Both the position numbers and the translations under genes were made by a program. DNA of 64,000 nt from Candidatus Omnitrophota bacterium (lineage in GTDB: Bacteria; Omnitrophota; Gorgyraeia; Zapsychrales; Fredricksoniimonadaceae), in contig CAWHFJ010000017.1 in NCBI GenBank assembly GCA_963828495.1, positions 84,342 to 148,341 of the forward strand, given 5' to 3'. Positions 3,072 to 64,000 of the stretch are shown here, in pieces. The notes under the pieces were generated by a model. The model saw only the letters and a program-made list of their open reading frames with translations, searched no databases and had not been told where the DNA came from. Within the stretch, counting starts at the first letter, position 1. Each line of letters begins with the position of its first letter.

Positions 3072-4914
3072 ATGGATCCCGAATGGCGTGAAGTCAATGG
3101 AACAAATGTTTTGACCATTTATGGCCGTAAAATGGATCGGGTTTATTCGGCAGGAGATTTGGGCGATAGTGTGCTGGGGCAGAGACTTGTATTTATTGAT
3201 TTGGATGCCGTTGATGGGGAAGTTAATAAAATTATGGAGACACTCAGAGGCAAGAGTCCGTACTTTTTATTCAAGGGAAAACGACGGGTGGATGCCACAA
3301 AATTAGTCAAGAGAATATTCGCCGGCATGAATAAAAATGATATCCGTGAGCAATTTTTACATGGCACGCGCGCCCATGAATTTTTTCATCAGGCACAAGA
3401 TATGCTTCAGCTTCCGTATAAAGGAACAGATTATTTTGGTTTCTCTGCCAATATCTGGAAGGAGCGGGTGGCTCCTCAAGAGAGGGAATCTTTAGACCGC
3501 GAAACCGGCGCTATGCTTGCCCAAATCATTTCAGCTAAAGACCCCGGGTTAGAATTGTTTGATATATTTAAATTTGCTTTGTCCGGGCAAAACAATGCCT
3601 ATTATTTCGGGGCTCTGTGGATCATGAACCGTCTGGATGGCAGACCGGTCGATCAGTGGACAGATGGGCAGAATTTTGATGAGCTTATTAGGCAGTTTGA
3701 GCATATATATGAAATGGGGCCTGTGGGGATAAAAAATAGAGCTCAAAAATTAATGGAGGACAATTGGTCTAAGGAATTGTTGAAAGCCGTTGAAGGTGCT
3801 GATGCTGCCATGTTTTCCACACAGCGGATTGCGGAATACAAAAGAGCTTACAACAGATTTGTTAAGAATAAAAATCCAACGTTGAGTTTTATGGATTTCG
3901 TACTCGATCGATTGGTGAGAGAATCATTGGGTAATATTAAAGTTGATAAGGTTATTTATGGCGCATCGGGAGCGGATATTACCAATGTGCTTTTAAGTAC
4001 CCAGGCCAAGACGGTTTACATGGTTTCAGCTGACCAGAATTCAATAGATTATTTAAAAAAATACATTGAAGATGATTGGGATTCAGTGGATGGTTTAAAG
4101 CAGCAACGCACGTATGCCGCATTAAAATATAGTCAAGGTTGGCAGTATTTTTTTGTTAGCGCCAGTTTGATTTGGGCATCAGGTGTTGTGGCGGAATTAA
4201 AGACGTTAGGGCTCAAGAGAGAAGATCTAACTTTTGAAACAGCAGAAGATGGCAGGCCGTCCTTAACATTTAATCTGGATTTAGGTAATGGCATAAAGGA
4301 AAAAAAGAAACATTATCTTTATCCGTGCCAATTTGCTTAATCAACCTTTGAAGGGGGAGGCTGGGGGGCAACAGATTCAACGATTTTCTGAGGTAGATTT
4401 AGGTTTGGTAGACGGATATTATGAACGGGCGAGTATGCTCCTAAGGACTGAGAGGGATTCTTATTTGCCGGCTATCATCCATCGAATTAAGCCCGGGGGG
4501 TTTGCTATTATGAATAATCGTTCATCTGCGGATAAATATCCGCGTATTATTTTAGATCATTTTGAACAAGTTAATCCGTATAAGGCCATTACATATTTAA
4601 TCCTTAAACAATTGTGGGATTTTTTAAATGGTAAATTTAATGGTTATGGTTGGAAAATGCAAGTTTTTGTTAATTATAAACCGTCAGCGGATCAGGCGAT
4701 TAAGGCAGGAGAACCGGAAAGGGGAGGGATCGACCTAACTGCTGATCATATGAATTTGCAGGTTAAAAAAGAGATGGCTTCTCAAGGAATCAAATTTCAC
4801 CTTGACCCTGCTATGATCGTACAACTGCAAAATGCCACTGGTTTTGTGCCTGTGATTATTCATGTAGAGCCGCTCAAAAGCCTTCCGGAGTTTCTGGGAT
4901 TGGCCCAAAACTAA
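3072..4914 (+). CDS. hypothetical HExxH-motif plus methyltransferase-like protein with a C-terminal GGIDL...FLGL module; frame broken at the A7 tract 4300-4306
   Basis: ORFs 3072-4340 (frame 3) and 4333-4914 (frame 1) overlap. Frame 1 is already open from 4297 (RKKRNIIFIRANLLNQPL...), so the two join across the A7 run. Motifs: TRAHEFFHQ (HExxH), VIYGASGADITNV and IKPGGFAIMNN (MTase-like), and the terminal GGIDLTADHMNLQVKK...GFVPVIIHVEPLKSLPEFLGL. Confidence 0.5.
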
Positions 4915-4948
4915 GAAAATCCCTGATTATTTTTTTATATAAAGAGAA

Positions 4949-4976
4949 TTGACATTAGAAAAATCAGAAGTAAGAT
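4949..4976 (+). promoter_or_regulatory. sigma70-like promoter (TTGACA-16-TAAGAT)
   Basis: TTGACA at 4949-4954 and TAAGAT at 4971-4976 with 16-nt spacing. A GAGGGAG Shine-Dalgarno precedes the ATG at 5025. Confidence 0.45.
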
Positions 4977-5024
4977 AAAAGTATAAAGATTTTTATTAAC
5001 AATTTTATCGATTGAGGGAGAAAT

Positions 5025-5531
5025 ATGAAAAATCTGGTTCTGGTGCTGGTGGTGGTGTTTGCTCTAACGACATTCATTGGGTGTAACAAAAAGAAAAAAG
5101 ATGAAGCTGCTGAACTCAACGGAGTGGCCACGGAAAATGTCGTGTCAGTGAGCGATAATGCCATCCAGAATGCAGATACTAATGCTGTTCCTGTGGTTGT
5201 GGAAAATGCGGCTGCTGCGGCGAATGAAGCGACTGAGCCTGCGATGAACGCTGATATCGGCAAACCCACACCCAAGTTGATCCAGCAGGCTTTGAAGAAT
5301 GCCGGCCTTTATGACGGTAAAGTTGACGGTAATATCGGGCCAAGGACCAAAAAAGCCATCGAAGCTTTTCAGTCCCAGAATGGCCTGAAAGCGGATGGTA
5401 AGGTGGGCCGCAAAACATGGAAACTTTTATCCGCTTATTTGAATAAAAGCGCGGAAGTGACTAATCCGTCCGCCGATACCCAAGCGGTTGCAATAAACCA
5501 ACAAGAAATAAGGCGAATCAAGAGTCAATAA
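5025..5531 (+). CDS. lipoprotein with a peptidoglycan-binding domain (PG_binding_1-like)
   Basis: Signal peptide with lipobox LTTFIGC. C-terminal LIQQALKNAGLYDGKVDGNIGPRTKKAIEAFQSQNGLKADGKVGRKTW matches the PG-binding repeat pattern. Confidence 0.7.
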   Translation: MKNLVLVLVVVFALTTFIGCNKKKKDEAAELNGVATENVVSVSDNAIQNADTNAVPVVVENAAAAANEATEPAMNADIGKPTPKLIQQALKNAGLYDGKVDGNIGPRTKKAIEAFQSQNGLKADGKVGRKTWKLLSAYLNKSAEVTNPSADTQAVAINQQEIRRIKSQ

Positions 5532-5566
5532 GAAAAAGTTGTGCAACAAGAAGGAGGAACAAGGTA

Positions 5567-5769
5567 ATGGCCAAAGGTAAAGTCAAATGGTTCAATAATC
5601 AAAAAGGTTATGGTTTTATCACCCCGAAAACGGTAAAGATGTTTTTGTCCACCACACCGCAATCAAATCCGACGGTTACAGAACCTTGGAAGAAGGCCAG
5701 GAAGTTGAATTTGATATTCAACAAGGCCCCAAGGGCGAGCAAGCCGTGAACGTTACGAAGGCCACATAG
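5567..5769 (+). CDS. cspA: cold-shock protein (CspA family); frame broken in the C4 tract 5622-5625
   Basis: [20 protein letters not shown] in frame 2 continues in frame 1 as [47 protein letters not shown]. One extra C would restore a 67-aa Csp. A hairpin terminator follows. Confidence 0.85.
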
Positions 5770-21491: not shown

Positions 21492-22100
21492 ATGTCTAAC
21501 GCACAAATATTAGTCCCGATGGTCGTCGAAAAAACCAGTCATGGCGAACGCTCTTATGATATTTACTCCAGGCTTTTAAAAGAACGTATCGTTTTTTTGG
21601 GCATGGGTATCGATGATCATGTCGCCAATGTGGTAATCGCCCAACTTTTATTTTTACAATCTGAAGACAAAGAGAAGGACATCTTTTTGTATATCAACTC
21701 TCCGGGGGGTTCTGTGACCGCGGGGTTAGCGATTTATGATACGATCCAATATGTGAAACCGGATGTGGTCACCTGTTGTGTCGGTCAGGCCGCCAGTATG
21801 GGGGCTGTGTTGTTGACCGCCGGCGCCAAAGGCAAACGTTATGCGTTACCCAACGCACGCATCATGATCCATCAGCCTTGGGGAGGCGCACAGGGTACGG
21901 CCAGTGATATTTCCATACAGGCCGAGGAAATTTTACGGATGAAAGACGCAGTAAATAAAATTTTAGCCAATCACACAAATCAAGCATTGGAAAAAATAGT
22001 CAAAGACACCGACCGCGACTTCTTTATGTCCGCCCAAGAGGCGAAAGACTATGGTTTAGTCGACGGTGTCATCGCTCATTTCGGAGAAACTATAAAATGA
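21492..22100 (+). CDS. clpP: ATP-dependent Clp protease proteolytic subunit
   Basis: ERIVFLG...INSPGGSV...GQAASMG...MIHQP. Confidence 0.95.
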
Positions 22101-22148
22101 TTCTGACGCAATGTCAGAATCATCCTGAGCCTATAAGCGAAGGATCTT
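22098..22148 (+). repeat. intergenic hairpin-repeat element, copy 1 (starts at the clpP stop codon)
   Basis: TGA-TTCTGAC-GCAAT-GTCAGAA-T-CATCCTGAGCC-TATAA-GCGAAGGATCT. Confidence 0.6.
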
Positions 22149-22167: not shown

Positions 22168-23311
22168 ATGAAACGCAATTTGTTGTTAACTCCCGGCCCA
22201 ACTCAAGTACCTGCCAATCTGTGCGCGGCTTTAGGTAAGCCTATCATCCATCACCGCACGCCGCAATTTCAAAACAATATCAAACAGGTAGTGGAAGGTT
22301 TAAAAGATATCTTTCAGACTACCAATGACATTTATATTTTAACCTCTTCAGGTTCCGGCGGCATGGAAGCGGCCGTATCAAACCTGCTTTCCCCCAATGA
22401 TAAGGCCATTGCGGTCGATGGCGGAAAATTCGGCGAGCGCTGGGTGGAACTTTGCCAAACCTTTAAGGCTAATACGATTGTGTATAAGGTGGAATGGGGC
22501 AAAGCTCCCACTGCGGCAGAGATTAAATCGTTATTAAATGCCCATCCTGACACCAAGGCAGTATTTATCACCTTGGCAGAAACCTCGACAGGCGTGACTC
22601 CTGATGTCAAAGCTATCGGAGAGGTTGTTAAAAACACCCAGGCTGTTTTAGTGGTCGACGCGGTGTCGGGTCTGGCTGTTCAGGAAATTAAAACCGACGA
22701 GTGGCACTGCGATGTGGTGGTATCCGCCTCCCATAAGGGCCTGATGCTGCCGCCGGGCTTAAGTTTTGTCAGCGCCTCACCCAAAGCCATTGATTTGATC
22801 AATAAAAGCACAAACCCGCGTTACTATTTTGATTTGCGCGAATCCAAAAAGGCCATGGAAAAAATTGACACTCCTTTTACGCCGGCCATTGGCGTCCTTA
22901 TCGCTTTGGTGGACTCGCATCGAGATGATTAAAAAAGAGGGTCTTACCAATATGTTTGCCCGTTACGCGCTTTTAGCCCGTGCGGTACGTGCCGGCTGCA
23001 AGGCCATCGGCCTGGAATTATTTCCTGACCTTAGCTGTGCAACCAATGTGCTGACGGCCGTTAAGGTGCCTGCTAACATCGACGGAGAAAAGTTGACTAA
23101 AACCATGCGCGATACCTATGGCATTACTTTTGCCGGCGGACAAGACCTCCTTAAAGGTAAAGTCATCCGCATGGCGCATATGGGGGCCCTGGATGAATAT
23201 GATATTCTTACAGGACTGGCTTGCTTAGAAAAAGTCTTGCATCAAATGGGGCATAAATTTGAACTGGGCAGCGCATTAAGTGCCGCTCAAAAAGTTCTCA
23301 ACACAAATTGA
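22168..23311 (+). CDS. class V aminotransferase (serine-pyruvate / phosphoserine aminotransferase-like); one frame break near 22918
   Basis: LLTPGPTQVP...SHKGLMLPPG, then ...TPAIGVLIALVDS (frame 1) continues as IEMIKKEGL... (frame 2). Adjacent to serA. Confidence 0.75.
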
Positions 23312-23361
23312 CATCCGACGTAATGTCGGATGTCATCCTGAGCCAACTGGCGAAGGATCTC
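23309..23361 (+). repeat. intergenic hairpin-repeat element, copy 2 (starts at the aminotransferase stop codon)
   Basis: TGA-CATCCGAC-GTAAT-GTCGGATG-T-CATCCTGAGCC-AACTG-GCGAAGGATCT. Confidence 0.6.
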
Positions 23362-34999: not shown

Positions 35000-36055
35000 A
35001 TGGACAGTGAATTAATGGCAATTTTGGAACAATTAGAACGGGATAAAGGCATTGATAAAGAGACTTTAATCGCGGCTGTAGAAGCTGCGGTGGCTTCTGC
35101 TGCGAAAAAAATATGGACTATCGACAAGGAAGAAGACATTAAAGTGACTTTGGACCGCAAAACAGGTAAAATCAAGGCTTGGGCCGCGGGGGAAGAAATT
35201 CACTCCAGTGAATTCGGCCGTATCGCTGCCCAGACCGCCAAACAGGTGGTCATTCAAAAAATCCGTGAAGCCGAAAAAGATGTGGTGTTCGGCGAATATA
35301 ATGCCCGCATCGGACAGATTATCAGCGGTAGTGTGTATCGCTTTGAGCGGGGCAACATCATTGTGGATTTAGGCAAATCCGAAGCTCTGATCCCCAAGAG
35401 CGAACAAAGCAATAAAGAAGAATTTCGCCAGGGGGAGCGTATCCGTGCCTATGTGCTGGAAGTAAGAAGAGAAAATCGCGGGCCGCAGGTCATCCTGTCA
35501 CGCGCCCACCCGAATTTTGTCAAACGTCTTTTTGAACTGGAAGTGCCTGAAATTTACGAAGGCATCATTGAAATCAAAGCGATCGCCCGGGATCCCGGTG
35601 AGCGCACTAAAATCGCCGTTTATTCCAAAGATGAAAAAATTGATTGTGTGGGGGCGTGTGTAGGCATGCGCGGCAGCCGTGTGAAAAACATCGTCACCGA
35701 ATTGCACGGTGAAAAAATCGATATCGTGCGTTATTCCGAAGACATCAAAGAATATATTCAGGCCTCCTTATCTCCGGCGGAAATTTCACAGATGCAATTG
35801 ATTGCCGATGAAAAGAGAGTTAATATTATTGTGGATGAAGATCAATTGTCGTTAGCCATCGGTAAATACGGTCAGAATGTGCGTTTGGCCAGTAAGTTGG
35901 TCGGCTGGGAATTGGATATTTATTCCGCCAAACAATGGGAAGAAAAACAAAAAACCGTAGAATCTGCGGAAGATTCTACAAAGATCCCGGAAAGTGCTTC
36001 CCCTGATACCATCCCTGCTGATGAGGACTCTAAAGAAGAAGAGGAACAGGAATAA
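35000..36055 (+). CDS. nusA: transcription termination/antitermination factor NusA
   Basis: N-domain, S1 (GQIISGSVYRFERGNIIVDLG) and KH1/KH2 (GACVGMRGSRV; AIGKYGQNVRLA), then an acidic tail. Confidence 0.9.
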   Translation: MDSELMAILEQLERDKGIDKETLIAAVEAAVASAAKKIWTIDKEEDIKVTLDRKTGKIKAWAAGEEIHSSEFGRIAAQTAKQVVIQKIREAEKDVVFGEYNARIGQIISGSVYRFERGNIIVDLGKSEALIPKSEQSNKEEFRQGERIRAYVLEVRRENRGPQVILSRAHPNFVKRLFELEVPEIYEGIIEIKAIARDPGERTKIAVYSKDEKIDCVGACVGMRGSRVKNIVTELHGEKIDIVRYSEDIKEYIQASLSPAEISQMQLIADEKRVNIIVDEDQLSLAIGKYGQNVRLASKLVGWELDIYSAKQWEEKQKTVESAEDSTKIPESASPDTIPADEDSKEEEEQE

Positions 36056-36056
36056 T

Positions 36057-38538
36057 ATGCATATAGCGGATTTAGCCAAAGAGTTAAAAATTACCGAAAG
36101 CTATGTTACAAAGAAAATCAAATCATTAAAACTGCGTTCTAAAGACAACGGCGAAATTACGGCTATTGTCGAAATGATTCTACGCGACGCTTTGGCGGAT
36201 GAAGGCATAGGCCAGCGTGTGGTCGAGGAACCCCCGCCGACTAAAAAATCCGTCAAAAAGACTACTACCCCTAAACCCAAGCCTACTGCGGCCAAGCCTA
36301 AAATAAAAACTGAAGAAGACAAAAAAGAGAAAAAAAAGCCGTCTGTCTCCAGAAAGAAAACAGCCCTGGAACCTGACGATGAGCCGCTGCCTAAAAAAGA
36401 GGCTCCCAAATCAATTTTACCCAAATCGGAAACTCCGAAAATTGAATCCGTGCCTCCCAGAAGATCGAACCCGTGCTTCCCAAGATTGAACCCGTGCATC
36501 CCAAAATTGAATCCGCGCTTCCCAAGATTGAACCCGTGCCTCCTAAACCGGTGATGCCGCAAATAGATGTTACCAAAATAGATATCCCCAAAGATATTCC
36601 GCCGCTGGAACCGCTCAAAAAGAAACTCCGTTATGATGAACCTTTTATATCGGTCAAGCCTTTAGCTAAAAAACGCAAACGGTCTTTTGAGGATACCGGC
36701 GGCTTAGGGCATGGACGGGACCATAAACCTTCTGCGTCTATTGCCGGTGCGGTCATTCCTGAAATACAACCTGCCGGACCGCTGGTAGATATTGAATTAC
36801 CTATTCCCATCAGCGTTAAAGATTTCGCCGTACATATCAATCAGAAGATGAATGTTGTGCTAAAGAAACTTCTGAACATGGGCGTATTTGCCAATATTAA
36901 CCAGAATCTGGGTGAAGAACTTGTCGGAAAATTAGCCAACTCTTTCGGCCTTAATGTCATTAAAAGCAAAACTCAGGAAGAAGAGCTCATCGATGTCCGC
37001 CAGCACAAAAAGATGATCCGGCTTCTTTAAAACCACGGGCACCGGTCGTCACCTTTATGGGCCATGTGGACCATGGTAAAACATCCCTGCTGGATAGTAT
37101 CCGTTCTGCCAAGGTCGCTGAAAGTGAACATGGGGGTATTACCCAGCATATCGGCGCTTATTTGGTAGCGACAGCCAACGGCAAAATTACATTTTTGGAT
37201 ACACCGGGTCATGAAGCTTTTACAGCCATGCGTGCCCGAGGTGCTCATATTACGGACATCGTGGTATTGGTCGTGGCTGCGGATGACGGTGTTATGCCTC
37301 AGACCCAGGAAGCCATTGCTCATGCCCGCGCGGCTAATGTGCCGATTGTCGTAGCCCTTAATAAAATAGATAAAAAAACCGCTGATCCTGACCGGGTTAA
37401 AAAACAGCTTTCCGAGCTTGATCTGATGTCAGAAGATTGGGGAGGGAAAATAGGGGTTGTGGAGGTATCTGCGCTGACAGGGAAGGGCATTGAAAAACTT
37501 CTGGACCGTATTTTACTGGAGGCGGAAATATTGGAATTAAAAGCCAATCCCGATAAAAAGGCATTAGGGATTGTCATTGAGGCCCATATGAGCAAGGGCA
37601 AGGGTGCCATTGCCTCTTTGATTGTGCAAAGCGGTACGTTGAACTTGTCGGATGCTCTTGTCATAGGCCCTCTGCATTGCAAAGTCAAGGCCATGTTTGA
37701 TGATCAGGGACGGCCTATCAAAGAAGCCGGACCGTCGACGCCTGTGGAAATTTTGGGGCTTTCCGAAGTCCCTGCAGCGGGTGAAATTTTTTACGCGGTA
37801 GAAGATGAAAAGACAGCCAAAGAAATCGCGGAGAACCGCCAGGAAAGATTAAAAAATGAGAAGCTTTCGGGCACGGCTAAAGTTTCTTTAGAAGAATTGT
37901 ATTCGCAAATTCAGCAAGGGGAAATCAAAGAACTGCGGGTCGTGATAAAAGGCGACGTGCAAGGCTCTCTGGAAGCGCTCAAAGAGTCACTGAGCAAAAT
38001 CCCCTCTGATGAAGTGAAATTACGTTTTATTCATACGGCGGTGGGGGATGTTAATGCTTCTGACGTGGTCTTGGCGCATGCCTCTAATGCCATTATCATT
38101 GCTTTTCAAGTGGGCGTTGATGATAAAGCCCGGCAGGAATTAGATAAAAATCCCGTAGATGTACGGGAGTACCGTATCATTTATGATGCTGTTGAAGATT
38201 TAAGAAAAGCCTTGGAGGGGTTACTCGCCCCCAAACTCAAGCGTCATTTCATCGGTCGTGTGGAAGTACGCAATGTGTTTAACTTAAGCCGTTCGGGGGT
38301 CGTAGCCGGTTGTTTTGTTCAAAAGGGCAAGGTCCGCAATAAAATTCAGGTTGAAGTTTTGCGCAACGGCGATGTTGTCCATACCGGGCATATCAGCACT
38401 TTGAAACGGTTTAAGGACGATGCCAAAGAAGTCACTGAAGGCTTTGAATGCGGGATTACAGTGTCCAATTTTGATACCATTGCTGTCGGGGACATCATTG
38501 AAGCGTTTGATATCGAATCCATTGCGCGCAAGCTATAA
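36057..38538 (+). CDS. infB: translation initiation factor IF-2; two frame breaks (36459-36460 and the A5 run 37007-37011)
   Basis: The N-terminal Lys/Pro-rich region (frame 3) continues through PKIEPVx repeats into frame 2, then [28 protein letters not shown]...DTPGHEAF...NKID in frame 1. Confidence 0.9.
36435..36541 (+). repeat. five tandem 21-nt (PKIE[PS][VA]x) repeats inside infB; unit 2 is 23 nt
   Basis: Units at 36435, 36456, 36479, 36500 and 36521. Unit 2 reads CCCAGAAGATCGAACCCGTGCTT, against CCCAAGATTGAACCCGTGCAT in its neighbours. Confidence 0.85.
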
Positions 38539-56131: not shown

Positions 56132-57325
56132 ATGAAAAAGTATGACTTTTTAATTATCGGTTCAGGCATCATCGGCTTGACACTCGCGCACGCCATCCAA
56201 AAACGTAAGCCCCAGGCCCGTATTTTAGTTTTAGATAAAGAAGCTGGGGAGGCTCAGCATGCTTCCGGCCGCAACAGCGGTGTTTTACACGCGGGTTTTT
56301 ATTATACGGCAGATAGTCTCAAAGCCAAGTTTACCGTTGACGGCAGCCGTGCCATGAAGGCCTATGTGAGATCCAAAAACCTGGCCATTAATGAATGCGG
56401 CAAATTAGTCGTGGCCCAAAATGAACATGAGTTAAAACAGTTAGACGAGCTTTTGGCCCGCGGCCAACACAATGGTTCCAATGTCCGTCTCATTAATGAA
56501 GCAGAAGTCCTGGAAATAGCCCCCAATGTCAAAACTTTCAAACGGGCCCTGTATTCTCCCAACACCGCCAGTGTAGACCCCCAAGAGGTCTGTCGTGTTC
56601 TTAAAGAAGATTTACTTCAAGCGGGTGTGACATTTTCTTTTAATACAAAATATTTAGGCCGCAGGGGGGATATTGTCAAAACCAATCAAGGCGATTTCCA
56701 GGCCGACAAAATCATTAATTGTGCCGGGCTTTATGCGGACCGTGTCGCTGCAGATTTTGGTTTCGGCTTAAAATACACCATGATCCCTTTCAAAGGTCTG
56801 TATTTAAAATATACCAAGAACACAACCGACATCAATATCAACGTTTATCCGGTGCCTAATTTAAATAATCCCTTTCTAGGCGTTCACTTCACGAAAACCG
56901 TGACAGGGGCAATTAAAATCGGTCCCACGGCCATTCCGGCATTCTGGCGGGAAAATTATAATTTACATCATGGATTTTCTGTTAATGAACTTGCGGAAAT
57001 CCTTTTTTTCGAATCCCAATTATATTGGAGTAATGCGTTTAATTTCCGTTTGCTGGCCCATGAAGAAATACATAAATACCACAGGCCCTATTTTGTTTCC
57101 CTGGCCGCAGCCATGGTCAAATCCATTGACCCCAAAGGTTTTACCGAATGGACCAAGCCCGGGATCAGGGCTCAGTTACTGGACAAAAAAACGCTGAGTC
57201 TTGTCCAGGATTTTGTGATAGAGGCAGATCGCAAAAGCGTCCATGTCCTTAATGCCGTATCTCCGGCGTTTACCTGTGCGTTCCCGTTTTCCCAATACGT
57301 GGTTGACCAGTATGTACTCATTTAA
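56132..57325 (+). CDS. FAD-dependent oxidoreductase, L-2-hydroxyglutarate oxidase (LhgO)-like
   Basis: YDFLIIGSGIIGLTLA (GxGxxG) and GRNSGVLHAGFYY. Confidence 0.7.
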   Translation: MKKYDFLIIGSGIIGLTLAHAIQKRKPQARILVLDKEAGEAQHASGRNSGVLHAGFYYTADSLKAKFTVDGSRAMKAYVRSKNLAINECGKLVVAQNEHELKQLDELLARGQHNGSNVRLINEAEVLEIAPNVKTFKRALYSPNTASVDPQEVCRVLKEDLLQAGVTFSFNTKYLGRRGDIVKTNQGDFQADKIINCAGLYADRVAADFGFGLKYTMIPFKGLYLKYTKNTTDININVYPVPNLNNPFLGVHFTKTVTGAIKIGPTAIPAFWRENYNLHHGFSVNELAEILFFESQLYWSNAFNFRLLAHEEIHKYHRPYFVSLAAAMVKSIDPKGFTEWTKPGIRAQLLDKKTLSLVQDFVIEADRKSVHVLNAVSPAFTCAFPFSQYVVDQYVLI

Positions 57326-58703
57326 AATTGCTTGCCGTTCGAGCCCCCTGGCTTGTTGCCAAGTCGATGAAGTCATTCAAAGCCTAAAAACTAAAGGCAT
57401 TGCGGTCAATTATGAAATCCTTAAATACGCAACTGCGGGTGACAAGGATAAGACCACACCATTAACGGCAAGCCCTGATAATTTTTTTACCGATGCCATT
57501 GATCAAGCCTTGCTGAATGGCAAGGCTGACATAGCCGTACACAGCGCCAAAGACCTGCCGCAAAATTGCCCCGAGGGTTTAGAAATCTTTGCCTTAACTC
57601 AATGCCTTGATAATAAAGACGCCTGGGTGGGACGCAAGTCCTGGAGCCAATTAGGACCCCAGCCCCAAGTCGGCACCAGCAGCCTTTTGCGTCAACAACA
57701 AATTCTGCAATTACGTCCGGATGTCCGTATCGTGCCTATACGCGGCAGCATCGCTGAGCGTCTAGCGTTGGTTAAGACAGGCCAAGTTGACGGTATTGTA
57801 GTGGCTGTCTGCGCGCTGAAACGCCTCAAACTTGGAAGGCAGATCAAAGATATTTTTCCCTGGGAAGGGCAGCCTCTGCAAGGGCAATTGGCTGTGGTAG
57901 GCCGCAAAAATGATCAGGAATTAAGAAATTTATTTAGTATTATTGATGTGCGCCGCGCCAAAATACTTTTGCATTGCGGTACGCACCCGGAAATGTATAA
58001 CCATTTGGGTCAAATTATCCATTGGCCTATGATTGACATCAAGCCCGTAGCCTTCAATGGGCCTTGCCAAAAACAACTCCTGCAAGCCTTGGAAATGGCA
58101 GACATCATTATATTCACCAGCGGGTTTGCCGTTGAACATTTTTTCCATGTTATTGCGAAGCCTACTTCCAGTGTCATTGCGAGCGACGGTTCTTCCAGTG
58201 TCATTGCGAGCGACGGTTCTTCCAGTGTCATTGCGAGCGAAGCGAAGCAATCTCTTAAAGAACGATTTAAAGACAAAATCTTTGCCGTCATAGGCCAACA
58301 AACTAAGAGAGCATTACAAAAATTCAATATTGAAGCCCTCATTGTTCCCCAGGAAGAAACAGCCCAAGGACTTTGTCAAGCTATAACCAAGCATATGAAC
58401 GTAGAGGGTCGACATATTTTGTTGCCACGCTCATCAGTGCCTAATCCGTTTTTAAAAGAGGCTTTATCTACTCTCGGCGCCATCGTCACAGAAATCACTG
58501 TGTACGCAAATACCAAGCCTGCCCAACGTCCTTTACCGGACTTGAATATTACGGGAGTCATTTTTACAAGCCCCTCAACAGTGCGGAATTTTTTAATAGA
58601 TTATGCTACAATACCCGAACATTGGCACATCCTGGCCCGTGGTCCGGTGACTTTAAAAGTTTTACAAGACAAAGGGTATCCTCATGCCACATCGTTATCG
58701 TAG
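57312..58703 (+). CDS. fusion of porphobilinogen deaminase (HemC domains 1-2 only) with uroporphyrinogen-III synthase (HemD)
   Basis: HemC-like: FKIACRSSPLA...ADIAVHSAKDLP...GTSSLLRQ...RGSIAERL...PLQGQLAV. This runs straight into HemD-like sequence (KILLHCGTHPEMY...IIIFTSGFAV...GVIFTSPSTV). Confidence 0.75.
   Translation: MYSFKIACRSSPLACCQVDEVIQSLKTKGIAVNYEILKYATAGDKDKTTPLTASPDNFFTDAIDQALLNGKADIAVHSAKDLPQNCPEGLEIFALTQCLDNKDAWVGRKSWSQLGPQPQVGTSSLLRQQQILQLRPDVRIVPIRGSIAERLALVKTGQVDGIVVAVCALKRLKLGRQIKDIFPWEGQPLQGQLAVVGRKNDQELRNLFSIIDVRRAKILLHCGTHPEMYNHLGQIIHWPMIDIKPVAFNGPCQKQLLQALEMADIIIFTSGFAVEHFFHVIAKPTSSVIASDGSSSVIASDGSSSVIASEAKQSLKERFKDKIFAVIGQQTKRALQKFNIEALIVPQEETAQGLCQAITKHMNVEGRHILLPRSSVPNPFLKEALSTLGAIVTEITVYANTKPAQRPLPDLNITGVIFTSPSTVRNFLIDYATIPEHWHILARGPVTLKVLQDKGYPHATSLS
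58166..58254 (+). repeat. in-frame 27-nt tandem repeat (2.8 units) ending in a GTCATTGCGAGCGAAGCGAAGCAATCTC element, inside the hemD-like half
   Basis: TTCCAGTGTCATTGCGAGCGACGGTTC occurs at 58166 and 58193. The third unit (58220) switches after ...GCGAGCGA to AGCGAAGCAATCTC. Translation: SSVIASDGS SSVIASDGS SSVIASEAKQSL. Confidence 0.9.
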
Positions 58704-63093: not shown

Positions 63094-64000
63094 ATGAAAC
63101 GACACAATTTACATGCGGGGTTGGTCCTCATAGGAGGATTATTATTAAGCACCGGCGTTTATGCACAGACAGCCCAAGACTATTTTCACAATGGCAACGC
63201 CTATAACAGGCAAGGCAAATTATCTCAAGCCATTGTTGAGTTTACCAAAGCCATTGCCATCAATCCCAACTTTGCCAAGGCCTATAATGACCGGGGGGTC
63301 GCTTATGCTAAGCAAGGCCAATTGGCCAAAGCCATCGCTGACTACACCAAGGCCATTGACATCAATCCTAAAGATGTAGCGGCCTATAACAACCGCGGCA
63401 ATGCCTACAACATGCAGGGCAATCTACCCAAAGCCATTGCTGATTTTACCAAAGCTATCCAAATAAAGCCTGACTATGCAGGGGCCTATAACAACCGCGG
63501 GAATACCTACAATATGCAAGCCAACTGGCCTCAAGCCATTGCTGATTTTTCTAAAGCCATTGACCTAAACCCTAATGTGGCCGGAGCCTATCATAACCGG
63601 GGGAATGTCTACTACAAGCAAGGCAATTGGCCTCAAGCCATTGCTGATTTTACCAAAGCCATTACTTTAAAACCCAATTTAAAAGAGGCCTATATAAGTC
63701 GGGGGCTTGTCTATTACAGGCAAGGCATGTGGCCTCAAGCCATTTTTGACTTTACCAAAGCCATTGAAATAAACCCTAATATGGCAGAGGCTTATGGCAA
63801 CCGAGGCAATGCCTTCTTCAAGGAAGGTAATTTATCCCAAGCTATTGCCGACTATACGAGGGTCATTGCCATTAATCCTCTCTATGCAAGGATTTATAAC
63901 AACCGTGGGCTGGCCTATTATAGTGCCAAAAACTACGCCAAAGCTTGGGCCGATGTGCATCAAGCAGAAAAATTAGGGAGTCCTGTTAACGGTGACTTTA
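63094..64000 (+). CDS. secreted TPR-repeat protein, 3'-truncated by the window edge
   Basis: Absent from the ORF track because no stop occurs before 64000. ATG 63094, signal peptide ending VYA-Q, then at least 8 consecutive 34-aa TPR units (A.YNNRGNAY...G....AIADFTKAI.I.P). Confidence 0.8.
   Translation, partial: MKRHNLHAGLVLIGGLLLSTGVYAQTAQDYFHNGNAYNRQGKLSQAIVEFTKAIAINPNFAKAYNDRGVAYAKQGQLAKAIADYTKAIDINPKDVAAYNNRGNAYNMQGNLPKAIADFTKAIQIKPDYAGAYNNRGNTYNMQANWPQAIADFSKAIDLNPNVAGAYHNRGNVYYKQGNWPQAIADFTKAITLKPNLKEAYISRGLVYYRQGMWPQAIFDFTKAIEINPNMAEAYGNRGNAFFKEGNLSQAIADYTRVIAINPLYARIYNNRGLAYYSAKNYAKAWADVHQAEKLGSPVNGDF

Follow-up and report, generated by a model that had tools for sequence, protein, structure and literature searches.

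REP, BIME and REPIN elements are short hairpins with a GTAG tag that are mobilised by RAYT (Y1) HUH transposases. A second superfamily, the CGTC-tagged REPs, was described by Di Nocera, De Gregorio and Rocco (2013, BMC Genomics 14:522; PMC3733652) and includes dRS3 of Neisseria and RPE-4 and RPE-6 of Rickettsia. In-frame intragenic copies are a documented minority among CGTC-tagged REPs, head-to-head dimers are frequent, and tandem reiteration of REPs together with flanking DNA is described in the GTAG-family section of the same paper (PMC3733652). By its own account, that survey was escaped by REP classes with short or bulged stems, and the mechanism by which CGTC-tagged REPs are mobilised was an open question in 2013 (PMC3733652). 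The Ssn-related motifs and NTS are bound by small GIY-YIG single-strand nucleases, exemplified by SsnA (Chenal et al. 2025, Nat Commun 16:2388; PMC11893778), which cuts ssDNA a few nucleotides upstream of the hairpin and tolerates loop extensions and stems made of two halves. Ssn has been described as restricting transforming ssDNA, not as acting in transposition, and an insertion-sequence-like origin of the motifs is offered as a hypothesis only (PMC11893778). The words "tandem", "intragenic" and "in-frame" have 0 occurrences in that article, which does not discuss such copies. Palindromic elements within protein-coding genes are known as RPEs (Ogata et al. 2000, as summarised in PMC10969869).

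Here, a tandem array in a fused hemC-hemD gene of an Omnitrophota bacterium was analysed within a 64-kb stretch of DNA (the window). With a probability of roughly 0.75, the array arose by local amplification of part of a small palindromic repeat and is a tolerated passenger, multiplied by slippage, that keeps the reading frame within a permissive HemD loop exposed to solvent.

The array and its host protein

Positions 58173 to 58254 of the window consist of two perfect 27-nt units followed by one complete 28-nt hairpin element, GTCATTGCGAGCGAAGCGAAGCAATCTC (Table 1). Tandem Repeats Finder reported 58165 to 58240 with a period of 27, 2.8 copies, 100% matches and a score of 152, and the units that the initial annotation had placed at 58166, 58193 and 58220 are a cyclic permutation of this array. 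The tag and arm GTCATTGCGAGCGA is found exactly at 58173, 58200 and 58227; at ≤2 mismatches it gave 4 matches against 0.29 expected, and 0 of 100 shuffles reached 4. The chance expectation of the 28-mer at 58227 to 58254 is 0. Only the 5' half of the hairpin, together with a spacer of 13 nt, is repeated, and not the whole element. The proposed in-frame expansion of an intergenic-type element is supported, with the correction that what expanded is a half-element with its spacer, an arrangement found intergenically elsewhere too.

As had been claimed, the array is in frame within the hemD coding region, in ORF 57243 to 58703 (annotated start 57312), the product of which includes HVIAKPTSSVIASDGSSSVIASDGSSSVIASEAKQSLKERFK. 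The antisense ORFs reported at 57930 to 58301 and 58010 to 58342 likewise exist, and for annotation it matters that the repeats account for such spurious antisense ORFs (…LLRFARND…, …CFASLAMT…). The 27-nt unit equals nine codons and the frame is kept in all variants, so changes in copy number never shift it. The array has neither the unit length indivisible by three nor the promoter position of phase-variable contingency repeats. The hairpin element is open in five of the six reading frames.

The array is preceded by a degenerate 24-nt 5' half-unit, which is homologous to the 24-nt GTCATTGCAAGGCCCACTTCCAGT half-units of locus L002 and to copies between genes at L206 and L209. This unit was considered as native HemD codons, because it has a K-P in common with the canonical loop, and the idea was rejected because near-identical 24-nt units precede elements in the intergenic loci L206 and L209 and in L244. 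The spacer CGGTTCTTCCAGT of the 27-nt units is no simple derivative of the spacer of the 24-nt unit, so the first 27-nt unit needs more than a local duplication.

Table 1. Coordinates, within the window, of the host gene, the parts of the array and the intergenic relatives
Feature	Position	Strand	Description
Fused hemC-hemD	57312-58703	+	Hydroxymethylbilane synthase + uroporphyrinogen-III synthase; ORF open from 57243; Pfam, P0001
Degenerate 24-nt 5' half-unit GTTATTGCGAAGCCTACTTCCAGT	58149-58172	+	Encodes VIAKPTSS; read from sequence
27-nt half-unit 1	58173-58199	+	Tag/arm GTCATTGCGAGCGA + spacer CGGTTCTTCCAGT; encodes VIASDGSSS
27-nt half-unit 2	58200-58226	+	Identical to half-unit 1
Complete hairpin GTCATTGCGAGCGAAGCGAAGCAATCTC	58227-58254	+	Encodes VIASEAKQS; stem ATTGC/GCAAT, centre GCGAAGC
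Intergenic relative, 22.1 kb	22100-22148	+	Hairpin (ATTCTGAC-GCAAT-GTCAGAAT), then ATC-tagged CATCCTGAGCCTATAAGCGAAGGATCT; just past clpP-like stop
Intergenic relative, 23.3 kb	23311-23361	+	Upstream hairpin (ACATCCGAC-GTAAT-GTCGGATGT) overlaps tag of GTCATCCTGAGCCAACTGGCGAAGGATCTC; just past stop codon

The host protein is a 100% match to a database protein of 463 aa (P0001, start 57312). Porphobilinogen deaminase and uroporphyrinogen-III synthase domains are both present, according to Pfam (PF01379, E=1e-50, residues 28-228; PF02602, E=4e-33, residues 256-481) and to a Foldseek search with the AF2 model, which returned 2ypn and 1pda for HemC and 3mw8, 1jr2 and 3re1 for HemD. Against the sequences of solved structures, the HemD half gave nothing at E≤0.001, its matches coming from the fold search. 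The structure prediction that the initial annotation had called for was made for the insert-bearing protein: the model has a mean pLDDT of 81, with values <50 at exactly residues 286-310, SSVIASDGSSSVIASDGSSSVIASE, and confidence throughout the rest. The prediction is of a disordered (SSVIASDGS)n peptide in an otherwise normally folded enzyme. In the model, the insert follows helix 271-282 and precedes strand 323-326. This places it some 65 residues into the HemD part and not between the two halves of HemD as first proposed. From the known HemD fold, it presumably lies inside one of the two alpha/beta domains. The peptide would have no function of its own and would be tolerated because of its place, where helix leads into strand in an alpha/beta unit, away from the HemD cleft that is formed by the C-termini of the strands.

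The repeat family and its hairpins

The core of the element, with the covarying stems ATTCT/AGAAT, ATCCT/AGGAT, ATTGC/GCAAT and ATGCT/AGCAT, was found in 82 viral and 133 genomic matches from many phyla, the AT...AT stem ends in these 215 matches having been fixed by the search pattern. The exact 28-mer is present in many phyla and in phage contigs, in unrelated contexts. Copies of the family are mostly intergenic, after stop codons and often as convergent dimers (>200 loci), and HemD orthologues without the segment exist, in agreement with the view that an intergenic-type repeat has colonised hemD. Other in-frame copies occur in genuine enzymes (a sigma-54 activator, TatD, RsmE and IspG), which were accepted only with Pfam support because elements in "long ORFs" are overcounted through spurious ORFs of GC-rich genomes. 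Among 203 unrelated full elements, about 10 have 5' half-units upstream, a number that rises to 12 if two tandem complete elements are included, and only 3 half-units lie downstream. Half-units also precede full elements in L206, L209, L234 and L244; as unrelated contigs, L206 and L209 show the composite of half-unit and full element to be dispersed. A full-text literature search for the element sequence and its translated peptides returned nothing, and the family was traced by keyword instead. No Rfam match was obtained at the gathering threshold over the whole window, and no curated RNA family covers the element.

The hemD element pairs through five Watson-Crick pairs, followed by GA/AG mismatches, two G-C pairs and a GAA loop, and its centre, GCGAAGC, matches the stable DNA mini-hairpin d(GCGAAGC). 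The fold between ATTGC and GCAAT that had been suggested for the terminal element exists, but it is weak, reaching -2.7 kcal/mol as DNA with nearest-neighbour energies, which is no better than shuffled sequence, and the whole array is less structured than its shuffles (z = +2.5). The evidence for structure in the element is covariation, which palindrome-internal repair could also maintain. Three family members lie within the window, two of them intergenic and just past stop codons. A core common to both intergenic copies had been reported; this holds for the 23.3-kb copy, where GTCATCCTGAGCCAACTGGCGAAGGATCTC at 23332-23361 has its tag, stem logic and tail in common with the hemD element, but the 22.1-kb copy has ATC in place of GTC and ends in CTT. 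As DNA, 23311-23361 folds at -14 kcal/mol (z = -4.8) and 22100-22148 at -9.1 kcal/mol (z = -3.3).

Allelic series at the HemD loop

The alignment of orthologues, also suggested in the initial annotation, identifies the segment as an insertion, since the canonical loop has 15 residues in most of 120 HemD homologues. P0003, P0007, P0020 and P0024 are without the segment, and a single element is present at the same site in P0012, P0017 and P0021. The occurrence of the element at this position in several HemD lineages might suggest an ancestral HemD loop that resembles the repeat by chance. Such a coincidence is scarcely credible, because the exact 28-mer recurs in unrelated contexts in many phyla and phages, an unrelated loop of 15 residues is found in most homologues, among them the sister sequence P0004, and the canonical loop DNA of L245 has no element.

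At the DNA level, one element directly follows ...TTTCGT in L005 and L006, and L002 has two 24-nt half-units and a full element. The window has one 24-nt unit, two 27-nt units and a full element, and L001, whose sequence runs collinear with that of the window over 16 kb (97-98.3% nucleotide identity), has one 24-nt unit, four 27-nt units and a full element. L001 resembles an error-prone long-read assembly, with many split or frameshifted genes. The series shows that related lineages have one complete hairpin at this position as their basal state. The youngest layer is formed by the two perfect 27-nt units, their number being two versus four between two 98%-identical populations, a difference between two assemblies in which a short-read assembler could have collapsed the array of the window. 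Proneness to copy-number change had been predicted for the array, and the 98%-identical relative agrees with it. Since a single element at the loop is common to several HemD lineages, only the 27-nt amplification is specific to the lineage of the window. The locus therefore offers a natural series (no element, one element, half-units plus element, two versus four perfect units) from which repeat dynamics can be read.

Perfect short tandem repeats readily collapse or expand in assemblies, many genes of L001 are frameshifted, and a metagenome scan for TTCCAGTGTCATTGCGAGCGA returned 27 loci, of which only one was hemD (L221, of the L002 type), with no further 27-nt array alleles. An array or copy number produced by misassembly is nevertheless highly improbable, because the array occupies the same place with identical flanks in two independent assemblies, and related architectures are found in other samples (L002/L221 and L244). 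In addition, the 81-nt array is shorter than a typical read, and an exact gain of 54 nt is untypical as a long-read error. In the slippage-amplified passenger that is preferred here, replication slippage, or unequal recombination between identical units, would generate the perfect 27-nt units and alter their number, and the strand-specific hairpin may help by stalling replication.

At least 15 of the 120 HemD homologues have element-derived loops of various subfamilies and orientations, which are scattered among canonical loops on a neighbour-joining (NJ) tree whose poor resolution makes the number of independent gains uncertain. Across Omnitrophota lineages, the same HemD loop bears hairpins of the ATTGC, ATCCT and NTS types in both orientations, and in L244 half-units of the ATTGC type are joined to a terminal hairpin of the NTS type. 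Repeated occupancy of one loop by elements speaks against a mere passenger and hints at targeting or conversion, and its recurrence with different subfamilies makes the HemD loop a concrete case in which site preference or conversion can be tested.

The insert may also have been co-opted, either as a selected flexible linker, (SSVIASDGS)n, or as a regulatory hairpin acting in pausing, in mRNA processing or as a recombination or transformation signal. This would fit the frame preserved in all variants, the persistence of element-bearing loops in several lineages and the modulation of transformation by NTS repeats in Neisseria (PMC11893778). Co-option is very unlikely, however, because the loop ranges from 7 to 44 residues among HemD homologues, varies widely in sequence and has lost the segment in close relatives such as P0003. 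The inserted residues also have pLDDT <50, SsnA does not bind RNA (PMC11893778) and, as described above, the whole array is less structured than shuffles. Preservation of the frame is expected from survivorship, with five of six frames open.

Ssn nucleases and comparison with described repeats

Small GIY-YIG ORFs were flanked by family hairpins in 14 of 14 cases examined, which agrees with PMC11893778; the association of GIY-YIG genes with hairpins is already published there and is not new here. The link was found by a targeted jackhmmer search. All-versus-all BLAST of the genes neighbouring viral and genomic matches yielded phage structural proteins and common families, with no enriched family, and no transposase near family elements stood out in the neighbour clustering. 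A GIY-YIG search in the viral contigs gave one locus only, which was already known. The ssn homologue matches PF01541 (E=6e-18), and that of Omnitrophota is 52% identical to the gonococcal orthologue. Copies of the hemD-element subfamily flank ssn homologues in L094, L076, L181, L106 and L234 (Planktothrix), as Ssn-related motifs do with small single-domain ssn genes of the GIY-YIG class cd10448, and half-unit arrays adjoin ssn genes in L234, L094 and L076. No ssn (GIY-YIG) ORF lies within the 64-kb window, and none was seen in L001. With no ssn gene and only three family members in the window, activity of the Ssn system in this genome is hypothetical. Should the genome encode a GIY-YIG nuclease of the Ssn type, that enzyme might act on the complete hairpin in its single-stranded form.

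The array and the loop occupancy could accordingly be seen as products of an active Ssn system and not of passive slippage, with the HemD loop as a preferred site of integration or conversion. Any 5' half-unit could pair with the single 3' arm, cuts would fall at 27-nt steps, and repair would add or remove units. The cutting of SsnA upstream of hairpins and its tolerance of loop extensions and split stems (PMC11893778) are consistent with this, as are the half-unit arrays next to ssn genes, the composites dispersed in the unrelated loci L206 and L209, the mixed subfamilies and orientations in at least 15 of 120 HemD loops and the mixed loop of L244. Active Ssn involvement is still rather unlikely, because neither the window nor L001 showed an ssn gene, the poorly resolved NJ tree leaves the count of independent gains uncertain, perfect 27-nt repeats vary by slippage without any nuclease, and the known role of Ssn is the restriction of transforming ssDNA (PMC11893778). 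More generally, it is conceivable, though unlikely, that half-unit arrays are footprints of how CGTC-tagged REPs and Ssn-related motifs move or turn over, through Ssn cuts upstream of any 5' arm that pairs with the single 3' arm and through repair by which units are duplicated, deleted or replaced, and occupied sites such as the HemD loop may then become preferred for re-insertion or conversion by other subfamilies. If true, this would provide a mobilisation mechanism for "orphan" CGTC REPs and would explain why hairpins of the ATTGC, ATCCT and NTS types, facing either way, occur at one HemD loop in different Omnitrophota lineages.

The hemD element belongs to the superfamily of CGTC/TGTC-tagged REPs, which have a second description as Ssn-related motifs. 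TGTC stands directly 5' of its stem (58226-58229), and CGTC-tagged REPs allow CGTC, TGTC and CCTC; the tag is TGTC in the 23.3-kb copy and AATC in the 22.1-kb copy. Like those of CGTC-tagged REPs, the stem ATTGC...GCAAT begins with A-T and T-A, a short unpaired tail is common to both, and the family as a whole is dispersed in multiple copies, intergenic downstream of ORFs and in head-to-head dimers. In contrast, the element has five Watson-Crick pairs versus the 8-9 bp stem and 4-5 nt loop of CGTC-1 to -4, the phyla of CGTC-tagged REPs in PMC3733652 do not include Omnitrophota, and arrays of 5' half-elements as in hemD are not described for CGTC-tagged REPs in that paper. The initial annotation regarded the event as unusual, but it is not highly so, since in-frame intragenic copies and tandem reiteration are already published for REPs (PMC3733652).

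As in Ssn-related motifs, which are oriented by such flanking nucleotides, GTC precedes the palindrome ATTGC...GCAAT of the hemD element and C directly follows it. The published SRM string, HGTCWYN(0-2)YYVSBRHN(0-5)WNVSBRGN(0-2)RNCYNB (PMC11893778), fails on the hemD-element subfamily, with 0 matches in the window, including the hemD element and the 22- and 23-kb copies, and none in the ssn-flanking copies of Planktothrix; Neisseria- and Azospirillum-type sequences, used as positive controls, matched. Ssn-associated hairpins therefore include a pan-bacterial, phage-borne subfamily missed by the string, and current motif censuses underestimate them. What appears to go beyond PMC3733652 and PMC11893778 is a subfamily with a 5-bp stem and a GAGCGAAGCGAAG centre that fails the published string, the recurrence in unrelated loci of 5' half-unit arrays ending in a full hairpin, and a single HemD loop bearing different subfamilies and orientations in different lineages.

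The family resembles REP, BIME and REPIN elements in being composed of hairpin repeats with an unpaired tetranucleotide, in forming inverted doublets and in flanking a single-copy gene for an ssDNA-specific enzyme. It differs from them in its tag, which is CGTC and not GTAG, and in the enzyme, which is a GIY-YIG nuclease and not an HUH/Y1 transposase. The hemD array is also like the coding-region VNTRs that vary by slipped-strand mispairing, since close strains differ in how many perfect tandem units they have, but with its 27-nt unit it is no on/off switch of phase variation.

By analogy with the Rickettsia RPEs, the array seems to be DNA of the same selfish or passenger type, carried within a protein-coding gene. 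As these are summarised in PMC10969869, RPEs and the hemD element are both in-frame palindromic insertions in housekeeping genes, which are unrelated to one another in the case of RPEs, with an encoded peptide that fits the fold; the hemD segment is in frame, absent from orthologues and located in a disordered loop between a helix and a strand. According to the same summary, RPE-1 is about 100-150 bp long and found in Rickettsia (PMC10969869), whereas the hemD element has 28 nt and occurs in many phyla. The hemD insert is, unlike RPEs, partly amplified in tandem, and the tie between the two runs only through RPE-4 and RPE-6, which belong to the CGTC superfamily (PMC3733652). The hemD locus would thus add another selfish palindromic DNA tolerated in a housekeeping enzyme, now in the little-studied Omnitrophota.

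An in-frame array in a hemC-hemD fusion gene

A period-27 array at 58165-58240 of the window (Tandem Repeats Finder score, 152; 100% matches; 2.8 copies) lies wholly in frame within ORF 57243-58703, which confirms the perfect tandem array that the initial annotation had placed inside hemD; the two antisense ORFs that it had listed are both present. Exact copies of the 14-mer GTCATTGCGAGCGA are at 58173, 58200, and 58227, and at up to 2 mismatches the 14-mer has 4 matches against 0.29 expected, a count reached in 0 of 100 shuffles. The full 28-mer GTCATTGCGAGCGAAGCGAAGCAATCTC has no second near-copy anywhere else in the window. Read in register, each repeated piece proves to be a half-unit that joins the hairpin's 5' tag and 5' arm to a 13-nt spacer; the element is not repeated whole.

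The host ORF contains the domains PF01379 (porphobilinogen deaminase) and PF02602 (HemD) and is followed by hemB-like and hemL-like ORFs. The nearest database relatives of its protein bear the names Omnitrophica or Omnitrophota. An AlphaFold2 model with 22 homologues as input (mean pLDDT, 81) matches solved HemC and HemD structures in Foldseek. The pLDDT falls below 50 only at residues 286 to 310 (SSVIASDGSSSVIASDGSSSVIASE), between helix 271-282 and strand 323-326, so that the insert is predicted to lie at a helix-to-strand connection some 65 residues past the start of the HemD part rather than between the HemD halves as first described. Judged by how such domains are generally built, it would be inside one of the two alpha/beta domains, probably on the side facing away from the substrate cleft. 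In the HemC part (57312-57960), the N-terminal PF01379 is the sole HemC domain family detected and Foldseek aligned a solved HemC over about 217 of its roughly 294 residues; the C-terminal domain that normally binds the cofactor therefore seems to be absent from the fusion. At the HemC-HemD junction, the cysteine C222 (in LHCGTHP) is nearly invariant in the homologue alignment.

When 22 close homologues are aligned, P0003, P0007, P0020, P0024, and other HemD proteins lack the segment, which agrees with the earlier view of it as an insertion relative to relatives. Across 120 homologues, the commonest loop at the site has 15 residues (consensus K.LLSIKP.V.F..K), and the DNA of L245, a canonical relative, contains no element. 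The hemD segment is thus an insertion, and the alternative that it is an ancestral HemD loop is the most improbable of those considered.

Other repeats occur in the window. A tandem repeat at 36433-36547 (21/42 nt, 5.4 copies) encodes PKIEP-type repeats at the junction of the overlapping same-strand ORFs 35994-36554 and 36473-37030, which resemble a single gene broken by a shift of frame within the repeat. Another at 63199-63814 has a 102-nt period (6 copies, 69% matches), and the 34-codon period suggests TPR repeats; the homologous stretch of L001, a close relative's contig, gave only faint TPR Pfam matches.

Copy number and recurrent occupancy of the HemD loop

Array units in the window and composition of the HemD loop at related loci
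Feature or locus	Position	Strand	Composition	Basis
Degenerate 24-nt unit	58149-58172	+	GTTATTGCGAAGCCTACTTCCAGT	Sequence read in register
27-nt unit, two copies	58173-58199 and 58200-58226	+	GTCATTGCGAGCGACGGTTCTTCCAGT	Sequence read in register
Complete hairpin element	58227-58254	+	GTCATTGCGAGCGAAGCGAAGCAATCTC	Sequence read in register
L005 (HemD homologue P0012)			Single complete hairpin right after ...TTTCGT, short-centre form	
L006 (HemD homologue P0017)			Single complete hairpin right after ...TTTCGT, longer-centre form GTCATTGCGAGGAGTGAAACGACGAAGCAATCTC	
L002 (protein identity, 84%)			24-nt half-unit x2, then full element	
Window			24-nt unit x1 + 27-nt unit x2 + full element	
L001			24-nt unit x1 + 27-nt unit x4 + full element	
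L003			24-nt half-unit alone; full element and codons after it lost	

L001 (ENA ERZ25039473 contig_19317) is collinear with the window over 16 kb at 97 to 98.3% nucleotide identity. It has four 27-nt units against two in the window, so that two populations of the same species differ in copy number, as expected of an array described initially as prone to such change, with the caveats that L001 looks like an error-prone long-read assembly and that the window's array may have been collapsed in short-read assembly. NadA, ALAD, an aminotransferase, and a radical-SAM gene are in fragments in L001 and intact in the window, which suggests indel errors as in long-read assembly and bears on the trust given to its four-unit array. 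That the array or its copy number is an assembly artefact is very improbable. No further alleles of the 27-nt array were found in the metagenome scan.

Element-derived loops are present in at least 15 of 120 HemD homologues. These include forward long-centre copies (P0023, P0027, P0042, P0054, and P0068), reverse copies (P0032 and P0051; DNA in L246), an inverted dimer of the ATCCT type (P0016/L007), and an ATTGC-type half-unit in two copies followed by an NTS-type hairpin (P0010/L244). In L244 (2570-2650), which encodes a CysG-HemC-HemD protein, 24-nt ATTGC-type half-units (GTCCTTGCGAGG...) are joined to the Neisseria-NTS-type hairpin GTCATTCCCGCGAAAGCGGGAATCCAG, and it looks as if the terminal hairpin alone had been swapped. 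On a rough neighbour-joining tree, occupied loops are scattered among canonical ones in two-domain and three-domain fusion clades alike, which points to several gains or replacements, the number being left unstated because the tree is poorly resolved.

In-frame copies also occur in other genuine enzymes (a sigma-54 activator, TatD, RsmE, and IspG), and metagenomic ORFs provide further SSVIASEAKQS cases. Such copies are tolerated because five of the six reading frames of the element are open on direct translation. Co-option of the insert is improbable.

The element family and dispersed half-unit arrays

The family pattern GTCAT-NNN-GAGCGAAGCGAAG-N(2-3)-TCTC matched 78 stretches in viral contigs and at least 120 loci in one-genome-per-species contigs. 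Taxa among the latter matches listed include Acidobacteriota, Chloroflexota, Nitrospirales, Omnitrophota, Planctomycetota, Bacteroidales, Alphaproteobacteria, Saccharimonadales, Verrucomicrobiota, Clostridia, Calothrix, Helicobacter, Pedobacter, and Sphingopyxis. Nearest-neighbour energies indicate no unusual stability of a single element, so the case for structure rests on the free stem positions, which covary across family matches. Among the genomic matches listed, the stems are ATTCT/AGAAT (47), ATCCT/AGGAT (36), ATTGC/GCAAT (28), ATGCT/AGCAT (5), and rarer compensated types; copies typically lie just past stop codons, and convergent doublets 15 to 40 nt apart are very frequent.

Only three family members lie within the window's 64 kb. 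The intergenic ones, at 22100-22148 and 23311-23361, each have an extra upstream hairpin (ATTCTGAC-GCAAT-GTCAGAAT and ACATCCGAC-GTAAT-GTCGGATGT, respectively) whose 3' arm runs into the element tag. The stems of these hairpins are unlike each other yet complementary in both, and the regions fold well as DNA (z = -3.3 and -4.8, respectively). Classical terminators were ruled out, as there is no T-run.

A GTCAT-plus-arm copy lies at most 45 nt upstream of 12 of the 203 nonredundant full elements among the matches listed, compared with 3 downstream. Of the 12, about ten are genuine half-units spaced 19 to 28 nt, several of them in two copies; in the other two cases, complete elements stand in tandem. 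At the loci L206 and L209, intergenic elements are preceded by near-identical 24-nt units, and the 23-nt half-unit GTCATTCTGAGTTCTCCTGTGCT occurs about three times ahead of a full hairpin beside a Planktothrix ssn gene. The presence of half-unit arrays at unrelated loci shows that the half-unit plus full element composite is a dispersed architecture, and a recent local origin is required for the perfect 27-nt units alone.

We favor, at a probability of roughly three in four, a passenger element that would sit in a permissive HemD loop, its perfect 27-nt units being added and removed by replication slippage or unequal recombination and the encoded peptide itself having no function. The core of the initial interpretation, that an intergenic-type repeat colonized hemD and expanded in frame, is supported.

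Relationship to CGTC-tagged REPs and Ssn-related motifs

CGTC-tagged REPs, to which Neisseria dRS3 belongs, have an unpaired CGTC (often TGTC) tag and stems starting with A-T pairs; they are mainly head-to-head dimers downstream of ORFs, with intragenic copies, Rickettsia RPE-4/-6 among them, in the minority (Di Nocera et al. 2013, PMC3733652). REPs reiterated in tandem with flanking DNA are reported in the GTAG-family sections, and for CGTC-tagged REPs the authors found "no dedicated transposase" (PMC3733652). Ssn proteins are small single-domain GIY-YIG nucleases (cd10448) flanked by NTS or Ssn-related motif (SRM) hairpins (Chenal et al. 2025, PMC11893778). The hairpin must be single-stranded DNA for Neisseria SsnA to bind it, and the enzyme's cut falls a few nucleotides upstream; the Ssn/NTS system modulates natural transformation, and the NTS-ssnA-NTS layout has been likened to an insertion sequence (PMC11893778).

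The GIY-YIG/hairpin association was reached independently here and is that of PMC11893778. Among the matches listed (roughly 200 loci), all four GIY-YIG ORFs have an element at most 35 nt from the stop codon. GTCAT-hairpins flank all 10 diverse plasmid or chromid GIY-YIG homologues retrieved, their types including the Neisseria NTS type, a rhizobial type, and the window's exact subfamily (Planktothrix). The Omnitrophota GIY-YIG homologue shares 52% identity with its gonococcal counterpart; the 64-kb window contains no ssn gene. In the main rival reading, Ssn would cut upstream of one or another of the alternative 5' arms, and the cutting and later repair together could drive the array and the recurrent loop occupancy. 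This fits the published properties of SsnA (PMC11893778) and is unlikely; co-option, artefact, and an ancestral loop are less likely than both it and the slippage reading.

On Planktothrix agardhii plasmid p1 (L234; NZ_LR882964.1, 18450-19513), an ssn homologue lies between an MmeI-type restriction-modification gene and DISARM drmA, flanked by window-subfamily hairpins, including the 23-nt half-unit array. In a Planctomycetota MAG (L094, about 4900-5600), an ssn (GIY-YIG) cassette between inverted hairpins is bracketed by a direct duplication of >70 nt of the pheT 5' end, and in a viral contig (L042, about 3720-3830) a duplicated ribosome-binding site and gene start stand on either side of a solo element. 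Such long target duplications are not as slippage or simple transposition would yield.

Like CGTC-tagged REPs, the hemD element has a TGTC tag and an AT-start stem, but it lacks the 8- to 9-bp stem and 4- to 5-nt loop of the four described CGTC families. Like SRMs, it has a C after the palindrome and its subfamily flanks ssn genes, but it falls outside the published degenerate SRM string, which has 0 matches in the window and does match the Neisseria and Azospirillum controls. Across the window and loci L234-L243, the string misses the subfamily entirely, even copies directly flanking ssn genes. From these sequence features, we file the element as a superfamily member in a subfamily outside the published search definitions; censuses using the published string will undercount these motifs.

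The initial annotation had called the event unusual, but the phenomenon is of a described kind, intragenic CGTC-tagged REP or Ssn-related hairpins, and RPEs are the classic analogue. As we read PMC3733652 and PMC11893778, the recurrence of half-unit arrays, the occupancy of the HemD loop by varied subfamilies, and the in-frame copies in the other enzymes go beyond them, intragenic copies as such being known (PMC3733652). The value of the case lies in its locus-level series, a subfamily missed by the published motif, and a possible site preference.
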